DNA of 43,701 nucleotides from a virus (taxonomy: Duplodnaviria > Heunggongvirae > Uroviricota > Caudoviricetes). This document shows positions 3,368-23,686 of the stretch, piece by piece (positions within the stretch are counted from its first letter, which is position 1; each line of letters begins with the position of its first letter). The notes beneath the pieces are model-generated. The model was not told where the DNA came from, ran no database searches, and worked only from the letters and a program-made list of their open reading frames with translations. The position numbers were made by a program, and so were the translations under genes. The DNA is taken from positions 1-43,701 of IMG/VR virus record IMGVR_UViG_2571042636_000008. The stretch is one strand, 5' to 3'.

Positions 3368-3991
3368 TCATGCGGCATGGTCGTGGTTTTTTATGCTGGA
3401 AATTTCTTTCTCCAGCTCTTCCAGGAACTTTTTCACTTCGGACTCAATCTCATTTGCCAGTGCTTCGTCGAAGTGAATGCGCTTTTTGAAATAGGCGAGG
3501 TCTGGTGGTAGACGATCGTCGAAACTAACGAAATCACACCATTTACGCCCTGTGCACATCATCTGAGCGTGCATCTGCAGCAGGTACTGGCGTTTTGGCT
3601 CGCCAGTTTTTAAGGTCTCAAGATGAGTCCAGGTGTTGGGGCACTTAATTTCGATAAGCCCATCACCATTAACAAGCCCATCAGGGCTTGCTGCAAATCC
3701 TGGTATAGATGGGTGATCGATAAGCCCCACTTCAGTGATTTCGGCATCGAACTCATTCAGCGCATACATTTCGCGCGCTACCGGCTCGAGTTCTGTTCCG
3801 CGCATCATTGCGGCGTTGGAGAAACCTTCTTCAAGCTTCCCGGTGAGGCGCTGGCAAATCAGCTCGGCCATGTAGTTCTGTCGGCTTGCGGCATAGCCAG
3901 ACTTGGTTCTGGCCATGACGTCAGCAAGGCGGCTGGCTGTGACTTTTCCGCAGCGAGCGGCAAACCATTCTGGGGTGCGTTGTTCCATCAT
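3368..3991 (-). CDS. YqaJ-like viral recombination exonuclease
   Basis: RTPEWF...GKVTASR...EIKCP motifs typical of the YqaJ/lambda-Exo-like family; adjacent to RecT. Confidence 0.8.
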   Translation of the reverse strand: MMEQRTPEWFAARCGKVTASRLADVMARTKSGYAASRQNYMAELICQRLTGKLEEGFSNAAMMRGTELEPVAREMYALNEFDAEITEVGLIDHPSIPGFAASPDGLVNGDGLIEIKCPNTWTHLETLKTGEPKRQYLLQMHAQMMCTGRKWCDFVSFDDRLPPDLAYFKKRIHFDEALANEIESEVKKFLEELEKEISSIKNHDHAA

Positions 3992-4734
3992 TTATCCTCC
4001 GGCGCTGCGGCATCGACAGGTTCTGCGTTGTCGACTGCAAGGCTCATGTCATACATGCGACGCTTCTCAACCGCGCCGATAACCTGTTTCTCTTCTGCGC
4101 TTAACGCCACCCAGAATTCCTGATACTTAACAGTTCCAAGGCGTGCGGCAGACTCGCCTTTTGCGATCAGTTCCGGGCGGCGATCATCCGATTCATGCCC
4201 TACATGAACCTCTGTCGCACTCCCTTCAATGACACGTTCGGCTTCGTCCTGATCGAAGATGCCAGCAAACCCAAATGCGAGACGCGCACACTGGATCAGC
4301 GTCTTGTGACGAAGCATACGGGTAGGGTGGGACTGCCATGGCTGAGTGTTGCGTTTGCACTCTCCCATGTACTCAGTAACGATGGTCGGGTGTGTGCGGT
4401 CTTTCCGGTATATCTTGCAGGTACACGCGCCTTCTTCCTTGTCGTAGGCAAACTCCATTCCATCAAACTGAGGATGTTCGTTGATGATTCGAGCCCAGCC
4501 GTCAACGCCGACCACTGGAACAATTCCGCCTTTATCCGGGAATGCATAAATCTCCTTCGTCCACGGATTTAGTCCGTACTGGTTGGCGACGATCAGCAGT
4601 GCCGTGAACTGCTCATCAGTGACATTCCCACCCTTAAATGCTGTATTTTTCAGAGTGTTCATCAGGTCAGTTCCGGCATCCATGCCGAGGCGGGAGGCAA
4701 GCTTCCCGGCCATTGTAGAAAGTGCTGTGCTCAT
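3988..4734 (-). CDS. recT: RecT-family single-strand annealing recombinase
   Basis: RecT-like sequence; start chosen at internal ATG (4734) with GAGGGG RBS; the track ORF extends to 4785. Confidence 0.85.
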   Translation of the reverse strand: MSTALSTMAGKLASRLGMDAGTDLMNTLKNTAFKGGNVTDEQFTALLIVANQYGLNPWTKEIYAFPDKGGIVPVVGVDGWARIINEHPQFDGMEFAYDKEEGACTCKIYRKDRTHPTIVTEYMGECKRNTQPWQSHPTRMLRHKTLIQCARLAFGFAGIFDQDEAERVIEGSATEVHVGHESDDRRPELIAKGESAARLGTVKYQEFWVALSAEEKQVIGAVEKRRMYDMSLAVDNAEPVDAAAPEDK

Positions 4735-4750
4735 AGAATTCCCCTCAAAG

Positions 4751-5041
4751 TTAAAACGGGCAGCCGGTGCGGTGGTCCCAGTCATATTCCGCCTGGGCGT
4801 AAGCTACTGCCGAGATGAGATCGTTATATGCCTCGCCAGCTGCATCGCTGCGGAGGCCTTCGTATGGGCTTTTGTCCATCGGCACAGAGAAGCGGAACAG
4901 GCCTGACGGCTCTTTCGGCAGGGCGTCGATAATTTCCTGCGCCCGATCGTCAATCCACTTTTGCTTCTCTTCGGTTAGCGACTGTTCAGCCCATTTCCTT
5001 TCTTCGATAGCGTCGTATGCGCGGTATGCGTTCATAAGCAC
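4751..5041 (-). CDS. Hypothetical protein
   Basis: 96-aa ORF in the early-left operon between the coiled-coil gene and recT. Confidence 0.5.
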   Translation of the reverse strand: MLMNAYRAYDAIEERKWAEQSLTEEKQKWIDDRAQEIIDALPKEPSGLFRFSVPMDKSPYEGLRSDAAGEAYNDLISAVAYAQAEYDWDHRTGCPF

Positions 5042-5042
5042 C

Positions 5043-6014
5043 TCAGTAACTGATACCGGTATGGGGAATGCAGCCGTCTTTAACCGCTGTAAGCACCTCG
5101 ATAGCCTGATCCCGAGTAAGGCTGGTATTGGCCAGAAGAGCTTTGACGATTTCAGTGCCTACAGCCTTGCGGTGCTTAACGTCGGCTTCGCGGCGAGCCT
5201 GCTCATCGGCTTTACGTTTCTCCTCAGCCAGGCGGGCCTGTTCGCGTTGCTCTGCCTCGCGGCGGATGCGATCGGCTTCTTCCTGAGCTTTGCGGCGCTC
5301 CGCTTCGATAGCGGCCTGCTTGTCAGCCTCAGCTTTCTTCTCGGCTGCAATGCGATCTCGCTCTGCCTGCTCAGCTTGTGCTTTCAACACAGCTTCGCGA
5401 TGCGCCGCTTCTTCACGTTCACGCTGTGCGCGCTGCTCAACTTCTCGGGCTGCTGCGGCGGCTGCCATTCGCTTAATTTCTTCTTCATGGGCAATGCGCT
5501 GGCGCTCAGCCTCAGCTGCTTTATCTGCCTGCTCTCGGTCGAAAGCGTCATTCATCAGCAGGGCCATTTCGTGGTCAGACTCAATCCGAGCTGCCAGCTG
5601 CCGATCGAACTCTTCATTCATGGCCAGTGCTTCGACGTGAAGGGCGTTCATGGCTTCTTCGGCCTTAATGCGTTCCTGCTCCGCCTCCCATTCGGTCAAC
5701 GGGCGACGCACTTCATCTTTCAGTGCATCGAGACGCTCACGGACAACGCGGCGGCTTTCATCAATCTGCTTTGGCAGCGCCTTCAGCTCAGCGACCAGGG
5801 CTTTACCTGCGTTGTCGATGTAGGTTTTAGAGCGCGCGACCTTGTGAGCCATGGATGCGATAGCATCGCGGCCTTTTTTGGTGGTCACGTCCGGCACCAG
5901 ACTGCGAGCCTCTTTTTCGATCGCTTCGATAAGCGGATCGAGTTGGTCGTTATTGGTGAAAACCGCCATCGCGTTCTTTTTCTCGATGACGACTAAATCC
6001 ATTATTTCGCTCAT
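5043..6014 (-). CDS. Coiled-coil protein, Ala/Glu/Arg-rich, unknown function
   Basis: 323 aa; long low-complexity charged helical region (AEAERQRIAHEEEIKRMAAAAAAREVEQRAQREREEAAHREA...); antisense ORFs in this region are GC-skew artefacts. Confidence 0.6.
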   Translation of the reverse strand: MSEIMDLVVIEKKNAMAVFTNNDQLDPLIEAIEKEARSLVPDVTTKKGRDAIASMAHKVARSKTYIDNAGKALVAELKALPKQIDESRRVVRERLDALKDEVRRPLTEWEAEQERIKAEEAMNALHVEALAMNEEFDRQLAARIESDHEMALLMNDAFDREQADKAAEAERQRIAHEEEIKRMAAAAAAREVEQRAQREREEAAHREAVLKAQAEQAERDRIAAEKKAEADKQAAIEAERRKAQEEADRIRREAEQREQARLAEEKRKADEQARREADVKHRKAVGTEIVKALLANTSLTRDQAIEVLTAVKDGCIPHTGISY

Positions 6015-6779: not shown

Positions 6780-6900
6780 TGTTTGGATAAATTGAATATA
6801 CAAAATACAATCAATCTTGTAAACACATAAAATTGTATTTTGTTGTATTTAACAACCAAGTGGTTGTTTTTGTTGTTTTTATATTTGTTATTTGGCGTAT
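6780..6900. promoter_or_regulatory. Putative OL/PL operator-promoter region
   Basis: AT-rich; contains TACAATCAATCTTGTA (TACAA-N6-TTGTA) and further TACAA/TTGTA half-sites matching the motif in the cI-cro intergenic region. Confidence 0.5.
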
Positions 6901-6931
6901 TTCAGGAGGGGATGTTGTGTTACAGGCGAAA

Positions 6932-6958
6932 AAAAAGCCCGTCACCGGGCTTTGCAGT
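6932..6958 (-). terminator. Rho-independent terminator downstream of the cI-linked membrane-protein gene
   Basis: Minus strand reads GCCCGGTGACGGGC followed by an 8-T run. Confidence 0.55.
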
Positions 6959-6969
6959 AGTGATAGTGG

Positions 6970-7404
6970 TTATTTTTGCAGGGATTTTATTGCGGAAGGG
7001 GTAAGCATAGAAGGGGGAAGGCTGCGAAGGTTATAAATGTAAGTCATATAGCACCCGCAATCTCTTGGGAGCGGTATGTCATTAAGGAATCCATCAACCC
7101 CGGGCTTTATCAATTTTTTCTTTATCGCCCATGATCCCTTAATTGTATAGATCCTCCCCTCTCGTTCTGCATGCTCTTTGCAGCCCCTTGATTTCCATAC
7201 AGCCGCAAGGGCATTGTTATCAACTGCATAACTGTGATCAGCCGCATTAAGTAGCGTTTTCGCATTTTTAACCGAAGAGTCTATGCTTACTGGTTGATAC
7301 TGTTTTAACTTCTTTTTTGTGGACTGTTTTGTATGCCAAATAAAAACGAACAGGCAACACGTAACTGCTAAGAACGCCCCAAGCAAAAAAGAGAAAAAAC
7401 TCAT
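6970..7404 (-). CDS. Membrane-anchored protein in the immunity region (rexB/sieB position); candidate superinfection exclusion or abortive infection factor
   Basis: 144 aa; N-terminal hydrophobic helix FFSFLLGAFLAVTCCLFVFIW; 20 bp downstream of cI on the same strand, followed by a terminator; more AT-rich than flanks. Confidence 0.6.
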   Translation of the reverse strand: MSFFSFLLGAFLAVTCCLFVFIWHTKQSTKKKLKQYQPVSIDSSVKNAKTLLNAADHSYAVDNNALAAVWKSRGCKEHAEREGRIYTIKGSWAIKKKLIKPGVDGFLNDIPLPRDCGCYMTYIYNLRSLPPSMLTPSAIKSLQK

Positions 7405-7423
7405 GATTACAATCCCTTAATGG

Positions 7424-8119: not shown

Positions 8120-8159
8120 ATCCACCTCATAAACCGATCCCTCATGCTTACAAGAAATA

Positions 8160-8217
8160 AGGTATTTGACAAACAAGTTTGTTTGACAATAAAATACAAA
8201 TAACCTTGTAAAGGAGG
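8160..8217. promoter_or_regulatory. OR/PR region: operators and rightward promoter for cro
   Basis: Direct TTTGACAA repeats; -35 TTGACA (8166-8171) with 18-bp spacer to TAAAAT (8190-8195); operator-like TACAAATAACCTTGTA; AAGGAGG RBS before cro. Confidence 0.6.
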
Positions 8218-8221
8218 CATC

Positions 8222-16902: not shown

Positions 16903-17347
16903 ATGCCTGCGATCCGGTCAGGGCTCTTGGGTAGAGACGTGCTGCACGACACGTCAAAGCCCTTCCGCGCAGAGCCCTGAACCAGATTGAAGTTACTCAG
17001 CAATAAGAAAACTGCATGTCATCATTTGCTTATATCTTATTGACCAGAAAATTAACATGTTGTTAATCTATTCGTGTGGTGAATCCCCCTATGCGGAGGG
17101 GCGACCAGTCACTTACAGTGATCTGTAAATGCAGCGCGGGCCATGTCGACTGGGACATGCTCACCGGGAGGCACCCGGCACCATAATGCAATGCTACATA
17201 AGCTATTTGATAGTGGGGTTGCCGTTTCGGCTTCTCCAGCTATGTTTAAAAGGTAGTAACGGAAAACGAGCGCTCTCCTGGTAAATCGGAAGCTCGGACT
17301 ATTAGGTGCGCCTCGAACCGTTGAAGAATCAGTATTTCCTACCTTCT

Positions 17348-17439: not shown

Positions 17440-17514
17440 GGGTCAGAAGCACAGCGGTTGTGCGTTCGGCTGTTAACCGAATGGTCGAAGGTTCGAATCC
17501 TTCCTGTCCCGCCA
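17440..17514 (+). tRNA. tRNA-Asn (anticodon GTT), phage-encoded
   Basis: Hand-folded cloverleaf: D stem GCAC/GTGC, anticodon stem TTCGG/CCGAA with loop CTGTTAA, T arm GAAGG-TTCGAAT-CCTTC, 3' CCA; one T:T mismatch in acceptor stem and A at position 8. Confidence 0.6.
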
Positions 17515-17519
17515 AATTA

Positions 17520-17596
17520 GCGCCATTAGCTCAACCGGAGAGAGCAATAGCCTTCTAAGCTATCGGTTTCAGGTTCGAGTCCTGAATGGTGCACCA
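17520..17596 (+). tRNA. tRNA-Arg (anticodon TCT)
   Basis: Hand-folded cloverleaf: acceptor GCGCCAT/ATGGTGC, D stem GCTC/GAGC, anticodon loop CTTCTAA, T arm TCAGG-TTCGAGT-CCTGA, CCA; resembles E. coli argU from memory. Confidence 0.8.
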
Positions 17597-21630: not shown

Positions 21631-23082
21631 ATGGCGAAGAAAACAGGACGAGTCGCCACGGCGGATTCGTACGATAACTTTGTTGCCCGTGTCGGAATGC
21701 AGCAGCCTAACCAGCATGCCGCATCAACCTACAGGGCGAACTATACCAGCCGCAACCGCCTGCTCATCGAGTGGGCTTATCGTTCCTCCTGGATTATTGG
21801 TGCCGCAGTCGATTCGAAAGCGGACGATATGACCAAAAAGGGCGTGCGGATCACCAGTGAGATTGACCCGAAACGTCGTGGCATTCTGGAATCACGGTTC
21901 GATGAGCTTCAGCTTTGGGATTGCATCAACGAGACGCTGAAATGGTCCCGGCTGTATGGCGGGGCGGTGGCGCTGATTCTGATTGAAGGTCAGGCACCGC
22001 TGACGCCGCTGGTGCTGGATAAGGTTGGCAAGGGCAGCTTTAAAGGTCTGGCTGTACTTGACCGCTGGATGATTAACCCACAGCTCACCAGGCGAATTAA
22101 GGCGCTTGGCCCCAATCTCGGCAAGCCAGAATTCTATGACATCGTGACGACGGCGCAGGGGCTTCCTGCGTGGACCGTTCACCACAGCCGACTGATTCGC
22201 ATGGATGGTGTGAAACTGCCCTACCAGCAGAAAATCACCGAAAACGAGTGGGGCATGTCCATTGTCGAGCGCATCTTCGATCGCCTGACTTCCTACGATA
22301 GCACCAGCGTTGGCGCCGCCCAGCTTGCCTACAAGGCACATCTGCGAACGGCAAAGATTAAAAAGCTGCGTGAAATTATCGCCATGGGCGGTAAACCATT
22401 CGAAGCGCTGGTTAAACAAATGGAGTTAGTTCGCCAGTACCAGACGAACGAGGGTATGTCCCTGTTTGATTCGGAGGACGAATTTGAAACACATTCCTAT
22501 TCTTTCGCGGGCCTGTCTGACCTGCTTAGCGAGTTTAAAGAGGATATCGCGGGTGCTGTTGGCATTCCTCTTGTCCGTCTGTTCCGCCAGTCACCGAAGG
22601 GTTTTTCAACCGGTGACGCTGACCTCGCGAACTACTACGACGACGTTGGAACGCTTCAGGAGCGAGATTTACGGCCTCACATCCGCCTGTTATTCGATGT
22701 ACTGCATCGCTCAGAGTTTGGCGAGCCGTTGCCGCAAGATTTCACCTTTGAGTTTAACCCCCTGTGGCAGATGAGCGACACCGATCGCTCCACGGTGGCA
22801 ACCAACACAACTACCGCTCTTGCAACCGCGGTGCGTGATTTGGGCATGTCGCCGGCTGCTGCTCTGACTGATTTGCGCGAGCTGTCTGACGTTACCGGCA
22901 TCGGTGCTTCAATTAGCGATGAGGATATCCAGAATGCGGCGAAACAGTGGCAGGAGACTGAATCTGAAACCAGCCCTCCGCCGCCGATCGGAGGTCCAGT
23001 ATCAGAAAAGCCTACTGGCGATAGTCGACCAGATAAATCAAATCGTCACGGGTTCCTACGATGGTTCACAGGCAAGCGCTGA
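21631..23082 (+). CDS. Portal protein
   Basis: 483-aa ORF after TerL with CCGGAG RBS; portal position and size; family (DUF1073-like) from memory. Confidence 0.75.
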   Translation: MAKKTGRVATADSYDNFVARVGMQQPNQHAASTYRANYTSRNRLLIEWAYRSSWIIGAAVDSKADDMTKKGVRITSEIDPKRRGILESRFDELQLWDCINETLKWSRLYGGAVALILIEGQAPLTPLVLDKVGKGSFKGLAVLDRWMINPQLTRRIKALGPNLGKPEFYDIVTTAQGLPAWTVHHSRLIRMDGVKLPYQQKITENEWGMSIVERIFDRLTSYDSTSVGAAQLAYKAHLRTAKIKKLREIIAMGGKPFEALVKQMELVRQYQTNEGMSLFDSEDEFETHSYSFAGLSDLLSEFKEDIAGAVGIPLVRLFRQSPKGFSTGDADLANYYDDVGTLQERDLRPHIRLLFDVLHRSEFGEPLPQDFTFEFNPLWQMSDTDRSTVATNTTTALATAVRDLGMSPAAALTDLRELSDVTGIGASISDEDIQNAAKQWQETESETSPPPPIGGPVSEKPTGDSRPDKSNRHGFLRWFTGKR

Positions 23083-23686
23083 GAGCATTGCTAAATCGCT
23101 TGTTGACTACTCCGGGGTGATCGACGACTGGGCCGAAATGGTCGGTCGAAAGATGTTTGCCCAGGTGGAGCGTGAAGAGTGGAATCAGTGGCGCTCTGTT
23201 TCGGAAGAAATATCCGCTGGTCTGCGTGACGTGATTAGTAACACTCCTGTCGGCATGGTGGCACAAGACACCGTTTACCGGCAGATTCGCTATATGAAAT
23301 CTCTGCCATTAGAGGCGGCCGGACGTGTCAGGGAGATTCAGGAGCGTGCGATAAAGGCTGTCATCCATGGTGAGCGTCCAGATCAGCTTTACGAGATGAT
23401 CATGCAATCCGGTGACGTGGCGGCCAGCAGGGCGCGGATGATAGCCCGCACTGAGATAGGCCGCGCCACTACCGCATTAACTCAGGCTCGGGCACTGTCA
23501 GTTGGTTCTGAGGGGTACTGGTGGCGCATCAAGGGGGCTGGTACCAGGCCATCGCACCGAGGAATGAAAGATAAATTTGTGCGCTGGGATAACCCGCCAA
23601 CGCTTGACGGCATGACCGGACACGCCGGATGCCTGCCGAACTGCGATTGCTGGCCAGAAGTGCAGATCCCTGAGTTTAGAAAATAA
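22904..23686 (+). CDS. MuF-like head morphogenesis (minor head) protein; start uncertain
   Basis: Phage_Mu_F-like C-terminus ...YWWRIKGAGTRPSHRGMKDKFVRWDNPPTLDGMTGHAGCLPNCDCWPEVQIP; the track ORF starts at GTG 22904, overlapping the portal by 179 nt; true start could be 22919/22934 or later. Confidence 0.65.
   Translation: MLQLAMRISRMRRNSGRRLNLKPALRRRSEVQYQKSLLAIVDQINQIVTGSYDGSQASAESIAKSLVDYSGVIDDWAEMVGRKMFAQVEREEWNQWRSVSEEISAGLRDVISNTPVGMVAQDTVYRQIRYMKSLPLEAAGRVREIQERAIKAVIHGERPDQLYEMIMQSGDVAASRARMIARTEIGRATTALTQARALSVGSEGYWWRIKGAGTRPSHRGMKDKFVRWDNPPTLDGMTGHAGCLPNCDCWPEVQIPEFRK

Follow-up and report, generated by a model that had tools for sequence, protein, structure and literature searches.

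What does the gene that directly follows the repressor gene of a prophage do for the lysogen? This question is raised by a locus in the IMG/VR virus record IMGVR_UViG_2571042636_000008 (Caudoviricetes), which was analysed over its whole length of 43,701 nucleotides (hereafter the window). Genes in the slot 3' of cI, such as rexAB, are classic prophage weapons, and in the window this slot is taken by orf144, a gene for a basic protein (isoelectric point 9.7) composed of a membrane anchor and a MuF-like core. The gene represents an uncharacterised family in prophages of E. coli, Klebsiella, Citrobacter, Kluyvera and Raoultella, including the temperate phages RothC, RothD, GZ7 and RCIP0034. An earlier note on this DNA, made from the sequence alone, had likened the gene to rexB or sieB by its position and had recognised no relative of it. 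The latter statement has to be given up, since the soluble domain appears to be a diverged core of the MuF / SPP1 gp7-type head proteins, and we tentatively propose that the lysogen may use this domain to exclude other phages.

Homology of the orf144 core domain to MuF head proteins

The MuF core is found in about a third of tailed phages, and MuF / SPP1 gp7 proteins are thought to exit the capsid together with the DNA. The homology and structure searches that the earlier note had proposed were run, and MuF-type head proteins were recovered by tblastn, BLASTP, profile search and comparison with BFVD. In a tblastn search of phage genomes, residues 24-143 of orf144 aligned at 27-38% identity with the C-terminal half of ~270-amino-acid (aa) proteins of Pantoea phage PdC23, Klebsiella phage Chronis, five Yersinia phages (vB_YenM), a Shewanella phage and Rac-SA53, and in each annotated record, covering five phage groups, the gene of this homologue lies directly 3' of the portal gene, which is the slot of the MuF minor head protein. 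BLASTP gave E-values of 3e-27 against PdC23 gp03 and 8e-23 against a protein encoded at 3954-4784 of Klebsiella phage RothD. An exhaustive profile search of 1.8 billion representatives returned 265 clusters, of which only three, together with fragments, have a short membrane-anchored architecture; most of the others measure 250-290 aa and have the domain at residues ~140-270, and some of the clustered homologues carry long C-terminal extensions with HExxH motifs.

The shared region of ~105 residues keeps the motif order W...H...G...P.E..CxC of MuF / SPP1 gp7-type proteins (PF04233, TIGR01641, PHROG 324). All listed homologues that extend over this region have the CxC motif, mostly as CRC, and in an alignment of 60 sequences Ala67, Trp70, Trp92, Ala93, Pro130 and Thr135 are nearly invariant beside the fully invariant His78, Cys116 and Cys118. 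The clade-specific C-terminal tail YxYNLRSLPxxMLT is common to orf144 and the phrog_324-type head proteins. Sub-threshold matches to PF04233 (Phage_Mu_F) occur in 17 of the 60 homologues (best 1e-4), while no other family recurs in more than two, and phrog_324 ('head morphogenesis') is matched by the head-type homologues at 1e-25 to 1e-36 as well as by two anchored variants, P0046 and P0093. When the orf144 group was compared by hhalign with an alignment of canonical PF04233 proteins that included the MuF protein of the window, a probability of 61% and an E-value of 7.9e-5 were obtained over 71 columns, in which the W, H, G, P and CxC positions coincide; a thinner PF04233 template gave 41% and 2.9e-4. 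Two marginal library matches, to SIR2 in PADLOC (E = 0.039, 10.9 bits) and to phrog_7294 (E = 0.055), were dismissed as being at chance level.

The AlphaFold2 model built on the 60-sequence alignment reached a predicted local distance difference test score (pLDDT) of 92.3 and consists of a long N-terminal helix (residues 3-34, pLDDT 80-96), a second helix and a small alpha/beta unit. An alignment of only 10 close homologues gave an unusable model with a pLDDT of 52. Among the top 50 Foldseek matches in BFVD, nearly all named proteins are minor capsid, MuF-like, head-morphogenesis or GpF-like proteins, with probabilities up to 0.99 and weak E-values of 6e-3 to 0.2. No solved structure like the model was found by Foldseek in the PDB, where nothing fell below E = 3.9, and a sequence-profile search of the PDB gave designed helical repeats only, aligned to the N-terminal half of the head proteins. 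Because direct homology, motif, fold and the genomic position of the relatives agree, we conclude that residues ~43-144 probably form a diverged member of the MuF core superfamily, nearest to the phrog_324 clade and below every curated MuF threshold.

The differences from the head proteins are also clear. In orf144, a transmembrane (TM) anchor and a Lys-rich linker replace the N-terminal helical half, a 7-residue loop ahead of His78 is missing, a family-specific cysteine (C75) is present, and the gene lies in the immunity region 3' of cI instead of 3' of a portal gene. The anchor argues against packaging of the protein into the capsid.

In several head-type homologues (P0034, P0089, P0029, P0039), an intein (PF14890, E = 1e-6 to 3e-11) interrupts the CxC motif exactly at its first Cys (...EEVYC|LIGES...HN|CSC...), and some of these intein-bearing proteins also have a C-terminal HExxH extension. 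Inteins usually occupy functionally critical sites, and the CxC site is therefore marked as functionally critical. To our knowledge, inteins in MuF proteins have not been reported. The orf144 family also provides an entry point for studying what the MuF core does, and the invariant His...CxC site matters enough to be targeted by inteins in several head homologues.

Membrane anchor and predicted topology

The N-terminal TM helix that the earlier note had pointed out is borne out as one hydrophobic segment (residues ~3-23). Throughout the family, Lys and Arg are absent ahead of this helix, while the 15 residues past it include five to eight of them; under the positive-inside rule, such a distribution of charge predicts an orientation of N-out, C-in, with two to three residues outside and the core domain at the cytoplasmic face. 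Hydrophobicity and charge pattern of the anchor are conserved family-wide, while its sequence is not: variability within the protein is greatest in the anchor and the linker (mean pairwise identity 39-45%, against 66-77% for the domain). A cleaved signal peptide was considered for the family and rejected, as there is no positive N-region and a Lys cluster comes after a hydrophobic stretch of 21 residues.

Position in the immunity region

The order read from the right, OR/PR-cro, cI, orf144, terminator and OL/PL (right and left operators and promoters), is the layout of lambda cI-rexAB, and the coordinates are collected in Table 1. The repressor gene was identified by matches to PF00717 (1.2e-14) and PF01381 (6e-8) in Pfam and to phrog_4 (7e-49) in PHROGs. 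Although orf144 does lie closely 3' of cI on the same strand, as had been described, the gap is 19 nucleotides and not 20. No promoter consensus was matched on the minus strand from the cI start to orf144, and no second gene was found between cI and the terminator, either in the list of open reading frames (ORFs) or in the locus survey described below. The cI promoter, equivalent to the promoter for repressor maintenance (PRM) of lambda, is assumed to lie in the OR region.

The terminator assigned to orf144 in the earlier note is confirmed by an 8-pair hairpin at 6953..6934 (minus strand) followed by T8, with an RNA fold of -14.2 kcal/mol (z = -2.1), and the AT-rich OL region reported beyond it corresponds to a stretch of 40% GC with a PL-like promoter, TTTACA-17-TATATT, at 6823..6795 (minus strand). 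By k-mer comparison of OL and OR, a shared 20-bp element, AATACAAnnnnnCTTGTAAA, with the inner palindrome TACAA-n6-TTGTA, was detected. It occurs exactly twice in the window, at 6804-6823 (OL) and 8193-8212 (OR), where 0.08 occurrences are expected by chance. Since one copy overlaps the -35 hexamer of the PL-like promoter and the other the -10 end of its PR-like counterpart, the element is likely to be a cI operator. A further palindrome, AACAACCAAGTGGTTGTT, was observed at 6851-6868 in the OL/PL region. Another operator candidate, ACAAACnnnnGTTTGT, was rejected for lack of enrichment (15 found, 15.9 expected).

The AT-richness of orf144 noted earlier is real (41.8% GC, compared with 46.5% for cI and 52.5% for the window) but is not specific to the gene: GC at third codon positions is equal in orf144 (0.42), cI (0.43) and cro (0.42), and the AT-richness is therefore that of the whole immunity region.

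Table 1. Features of the cI-orf144 cassette, the orf144 protein and the comparator head genes in the window
Feature	Position	Strand	Basis and remarks
orf144	6970..7404	-	144 codons/144 aa, ATG start (ORF listing)
TM helix (single), codons 3-23	7336..7398	-	Kyte-Doolittle 2.2-2.4
Lys-rich juxtamembrane linker, codons 24-42	7279..7335	-	conservation profile
MuF-like core, codons 43-144	6973..7278	-	homology, motif, predicted fold
His78	7171-7173	-	invariant, 60 homologues
Cys116 / Cys118	7057-7059 / 7051-7053	-	invariant, 60 homologues
cI-orf144 spacer, 19 nucleotides	7405..7423	-	Shine-Dalgarno-like AAGGGA 8 nucleotides 5' of ATG
cI repressor, 231 aa	7424..8119	-	HTH_3 + Peptidase_S24; start set from homologues
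Intrinsic terminator	6926..6953	-	AAAGCCCGGTGACGGGCTTT then T8, 16 nucleotides past orf144 stop codon
OL/PL region	6795..6868	-	PL-like promoter, operator-like element shared with OR, extra palindrome
OR region between cI and cro	8120..8221		PR-like promoter TTGACA-18-TAAAAT 8166-8195 (+); operator-like element 8193-8212
Portal gene, Phage_portal_3	21631-23082		PF06381 1e-101; followed by the MuF gene of the window
Canonical MuF minor head protein of the window phage (comparator, outside cassette)	22934..23686	+	PF04233 2.2e-12

Conservation and linkage to the repressor

The exact orf144 protein was found on 142 public contigs labelled E. coli, and relatives, all annotated as hypothetical, occur in Klebsiella pneumoniae, K. 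variicola, K. quasipneumoniae, K. aerogenes, Citrobacter, Kluyvera and Raoultella. The cultured Klebsiella phages RCIP0034, GZ7, RCIP0098, klb_E, KpnBHU6, RothC and RothD carry the gene at 96-98% identity. A scan of species-representative genomes gave one locus only, in Raoultella planticola, which is no measure of prevalence.

Among 23 loci examined in a survey, orf144 identity ranges from 50 to 99%, and in every one the gene starts 17-25 nucleotides 3' of a same-strand repressor ORF. This repressor is an S24-type cI, 88-100% identical to that of the window, in 20 loci, and a 135-aa protein with only a helix-turn-helix (HTH) domain in the other three. The Shine-Dalgarno spacing and the terminator are conserved among the surveyed loci, with a T-run ~34 nucleotides past the orf144 stop codon in 21 of the 23 and a terminator called in L009. 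The replication and early-left modules vary between loci, and the linkage to the repressor is therefore the conserved part. The uniform cI-orf144 layout supports a co-transcription of orf144 with the repressor, which we infer from gene arrangement.

The three loci with the HTH-only repressor, L013 (402-1281), L014 (4572-5459) and L035 (2434-3333), hold distant anchored MuF-core homologues of 41-48% identity 3' of the repressor gene. In L014, the sole one of these with long flanks, the region is a Rac-like immunity region in which the repressor faces P22_Cro- and YdaT-type genes. As judged from these loci, the linkage to a repressor appears either to have arisen twice or to have outlasted a repressor swap.

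Rates of evolution

For the window and locus L028, the synonymous rate (dS) is 0.37 for cI and 0.41 for orf144, while the nonsynonymous rate (dN) is 0.002 and 0.089, respectively. The resulting dN/dS (omega) is ~0.005 for cI and 0.22 for orf144 (0.20 for the core domain alone), and at equal dS the orf144 protein has changed about 40 times as much as cI. In pairs with estimable dS, orf144 has a dN/dS of 0.16-0.30, except for one pair at 0.08, and in more distant pairs with saturated synonymous sites dN is 0.25-0.43 for orf144 versus 0.03-0.09 for cI. The reading frame is intact and the length identically 144 aa among sequences that are only 50-59% identical. Thus orf144 is under purifying selection yet changes far faster than cI, and, given 50-99% identity over the 23 loci together with these dN/dS values, it is not a chance reading frame.

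Relation to the head genes of the same phages

The window phage has its own canonical MuF protein, with the signature ...SH...NCDC, and orf144 aligns with it weakly. In its longest ORF, which opens with a GTG at 22904, this head gene shares ~180 nucleotides with the end of the portal gene; as its homologues measure 240-250 aa, the gene probably starts near 22934-22964. By comparison, orf144 lies outside the head module, between cI and OL/PL, and adjacency to a portal gene is absent in all 23 loci. In Klebsiella phage RothD (PP934564.1, proposed family Felixviridae), the cI-orf144 cassette coexists with a PdC23-type head module: the protein in the MuF slot (L017, 3954-4784) and the cI-linked anchored copy (L005, 2962-3396) are 36% identical in their common domain. 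A recent duplication of the resident head gene was rejected as the source of the anchored copy, the RothD head copy being only 36% identical. The head types found with the cassette are thus the canonical PF04233 MuF type (the window and a prophage of E. coli strain 126) and the PdC23 type (RothD), and the cassette appears from these genomes to travel with the immunity region, independent of head type.

Proposed role of orf144 and alternative explanations

In the proposed scheme, cI and orf144 would form the repressor operon, in this order, and share a transcript in the lysogen and probably also while lysogeny is being established; this transcript would stop at orf144's own terminator before OL/PL. 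The product of orf144 would be a single-pass inner-membrane protein whose Lys-rich linker holds the ~105-residue domain at the cytoplasmic face, and this domain would be an old, diverged paralogue of the MuF / SPP1 gp7 core, taken over by the prophage as an anti-phage factor expressed in the lysogen. In SPP1, a few copies of gp7 lie inside the capsid; the protein binds strongly to the portal and helps infection to start, and although assembly can do without it, only ~25% of gp7-less virions are infectious (PMC6316719). A MuF core at the inner membrane, made together with the repressor, would be well placed to meet the cargo of an incoming genome or a newly made portal, and the tethered core might engage its normal partner from the superinfecting phage in either of two ways. 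It may bind the portal, so that head assembly is mislocalised or poisoned or the membrane is damaged by clustering of the anchors, or it may bind the DNA end or the complex of ejected proteins on cytoplasmic entry and block productive entry of the genome. Portal capture late in infection is weighted slightly above the block of genome entry. Inferred parts of this scheme are the use of the cI promoter, the insertion into the membrane, the partner that is bound and any resistance to phages, and we give a probability of roughly 45% to orf144 being a lysogen-expressed exclusion or abortive-infection factor that acts through the natural partner of the MuF core. The fast protein change relative to cI and the presence of other anchored MuF cores (P0046, P0093) in accessory islands are hints in this direction.

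Several points weigh against an exclusion function. Nothing significant was found for orf144 in Pfam (no match at E<=1), PHROGs including phrog_324, NCBIfam including TIGR01641, or PADLOC; the model resembles no solved structure, and its fold therefore gives no clue to a biochemical activity; and the natural partner of the MuF core is taken from SPP1 gp7 only. Moreover, orf144 is without the ~140-residue N-terminal helical half of the head MuF proteins, in which either half may bind the portal. An omega of ~0.2 signifies constraint and is not demonstrated positive selection. In addition, RothC and RothD carry both orf144 and a related head MuF, so that inhibition of this head type must be avoided or switched off on induction; that self-harm is avoided through a different MuF or portal type of the phage itself is not a general answer, as the same two phages hold the gene together with a related head type. 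RothD lysogens have been reported to resist RothD, which repressor immunity explains equally well (PMC12629751).

Among the other explanations, it is conceivable but unlikely that orf144 is an accessory of lysogeny or host physiology with no anti-phage role, which would act on a membrane process of the host or on the switch between lysis and lysogeny, for example through the access of FtsH or RecA to regulators, like lambda cIII, and would be of some other benefit to the lysogen. Co-inheritance with two repressor types, an expression expected only in the establishment and maintenance of lysogeny, the blank result in the PADLOC defence library and a basic cytoplasmic domain at the membrane, where FtsH and other regulators act, would all suit such a role. 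The domain, however, comes from a virion protein family that is confined to the head modules of tailed phages and has no known regulatory link; a turnover of amino acids ~40 times that of cI fits a changing external target better than a conserved host partner, and the other anchored copies lie by toxin-antitoxin or accessory genes, not by regulators. That the protein serves the phage's own infection cycle, as a second, specialised MuF that marks the site of DNA entry or exit at the membrane or assembles and anchors the phage's own portal or procapsid, is considered improbable. Every invariant residue of the MuF core is kept in orf144, and MuF proteins aid the start of infection in SPP1 (PMC6316719), but the gene lies outside the PL, PR and late operons, is read from the repressor side and is terminated before PL, and so should be off in lytic growth. 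Furthermore, the cassette accompanies differing head modules (PF04233 type in the window and E. coli strain 126, PdC23 type in RothD), and the closest relatives of orf144 are the head proteins of other phage lineages and not the phage's own MuF.

Low GC, the lack of a curated family match and the coverage of only half of a MuF protein would be expected of a decaying head-gene fragment that was moved beside cI by illegitimate recombination and is passively carried. This explanation is hardly credible and is already largely refuted by the conservation data: the 144-aa frame stays intact at 50-59% identity, omega is 0.16-0.30 in nearly all informative pairs, the hydrophobicity and charge of the anchor, the Shine-Dalgarno spacing and the terminator are conserved, and the same architecture recurs 3' of a second repressor type.

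If orf144 is an exclusion factor, its phage head-protein origin points to a rarely documented route of defence, in which a structural part of the rival is used as a tethered binder, and the gene would provide the first experimental handle on the binding target of the MuF core. The more specific claim of a new class of prophage defence, consisting of a MuF core that was cut from its N-terminal half, anchored in the membrane, coexpressed with the repressor and able to recognise a portal or an ejected MuF-DNA complex, is put forward with more doubt than confidence. As RothD is a proven temperate phage of a tractable host, the predictions are directly testable, and in phage therapy of Klebsiella, a cassette like this could leave therapeutic phages with a narrower host range on lysogens.

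Comparison with known systems

The resemblance to rexB or sieB claimed in the earlier note was found to hold for slot and anatomy only. As in lambda rexA-rexB, orf144 occupies the same-strand slot directly 3' of cI with a terminator before OL/PL, and it encodes a membrane protein presumably made in the lysogen; unlike orf144, with its single TM helix and no partner gene, RexB has four TM helices and RexA as its sensor partner, and there is no similarity of sequence or architecture. Searches of Pfam, PHROGs and PADLOC gave no homology of orf144 to RexB, SieB or catalogued defence proteins.

P22 SieA and HK97 gp15, which block DNA injection via ejected or tail proteins, SieA acting on ejection proteins, are likewise small inner-membrane proteins of prophages (PMC10883804), and interference with virion-derived proteins at the inner membrane is the logic proposed for orf144 as well. 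Their sequences are unrelated to orf144, whose domain is predicted to be cytoplasmic and is itself a homologue of a virion protein. PdpSau of a S. aureus prophage, an abortive-infection factor that acts with membrane depolarisation, is also an accessory gene product in which an N-terminal membrane helix is joined to a cytoplasmic, positively charged part at the C terminus (PMC10127798). In contrast to orf144, it lies in the lysis module and has no MuF core, and no homology between the two was detected.

MuF domains have been reported to serve for bringing effector domains into the capsid, from which these are delivered together with the DNA (PMC5512222, PMC5576092). In the survey of Jamet et al., more than one muf gene per phage is rare, ~85% of muf genes lie beside portal or terminase genes, and membrane-anchored MuF forms are not mentioned (PMC5576092). 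No report on membrane-anchored or repressor-linked MuF proteins was found in the literature. A prophage membrane protein co-expressed with the repressor is thus of a known kind, while the use of a captured head-protein core for it is, as far as our searches show, undescribed.

Other non-structural MuF-core proteins and further features of the window

Besides the orf144 family, MuF cores were observed in three further proteins of non-structural type. P0046 (232 aa, with a TM anchor) is encoded at 5001-5699 of L019/L020 in an accessory island by HicA/HicB, between lysozyme and baseplate genes, and P0093 (224 aa, with several TM helices) at 1619-2293 of L015 and 831-1505 of L016 in an element with a DUF3987 primase. 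The third, P0045 (143 aa; L021, 103-534), is a distant homologue with an apparent cleavable Sec signal peptide, and its core may therefore be periplasmic.

Elsewhere in the window, a match to the small RNA STnc100 of Rfam (79.7 bits) lies at 17047-17241, followed by two tRNA genes at 17440-17593, between a Q-like antiterminator gene and the lysis genes. The early-left operon contains, at 5043-6014 on the minus strand, a gene for a 323-aa Ala/Glu/Arg-rich, probably coiled-coil protein, and L004 (E. coli strain 126), L010-L012 and L018 have 323-aa genes without a Pfam match in the corresponding place, matched by length and position.

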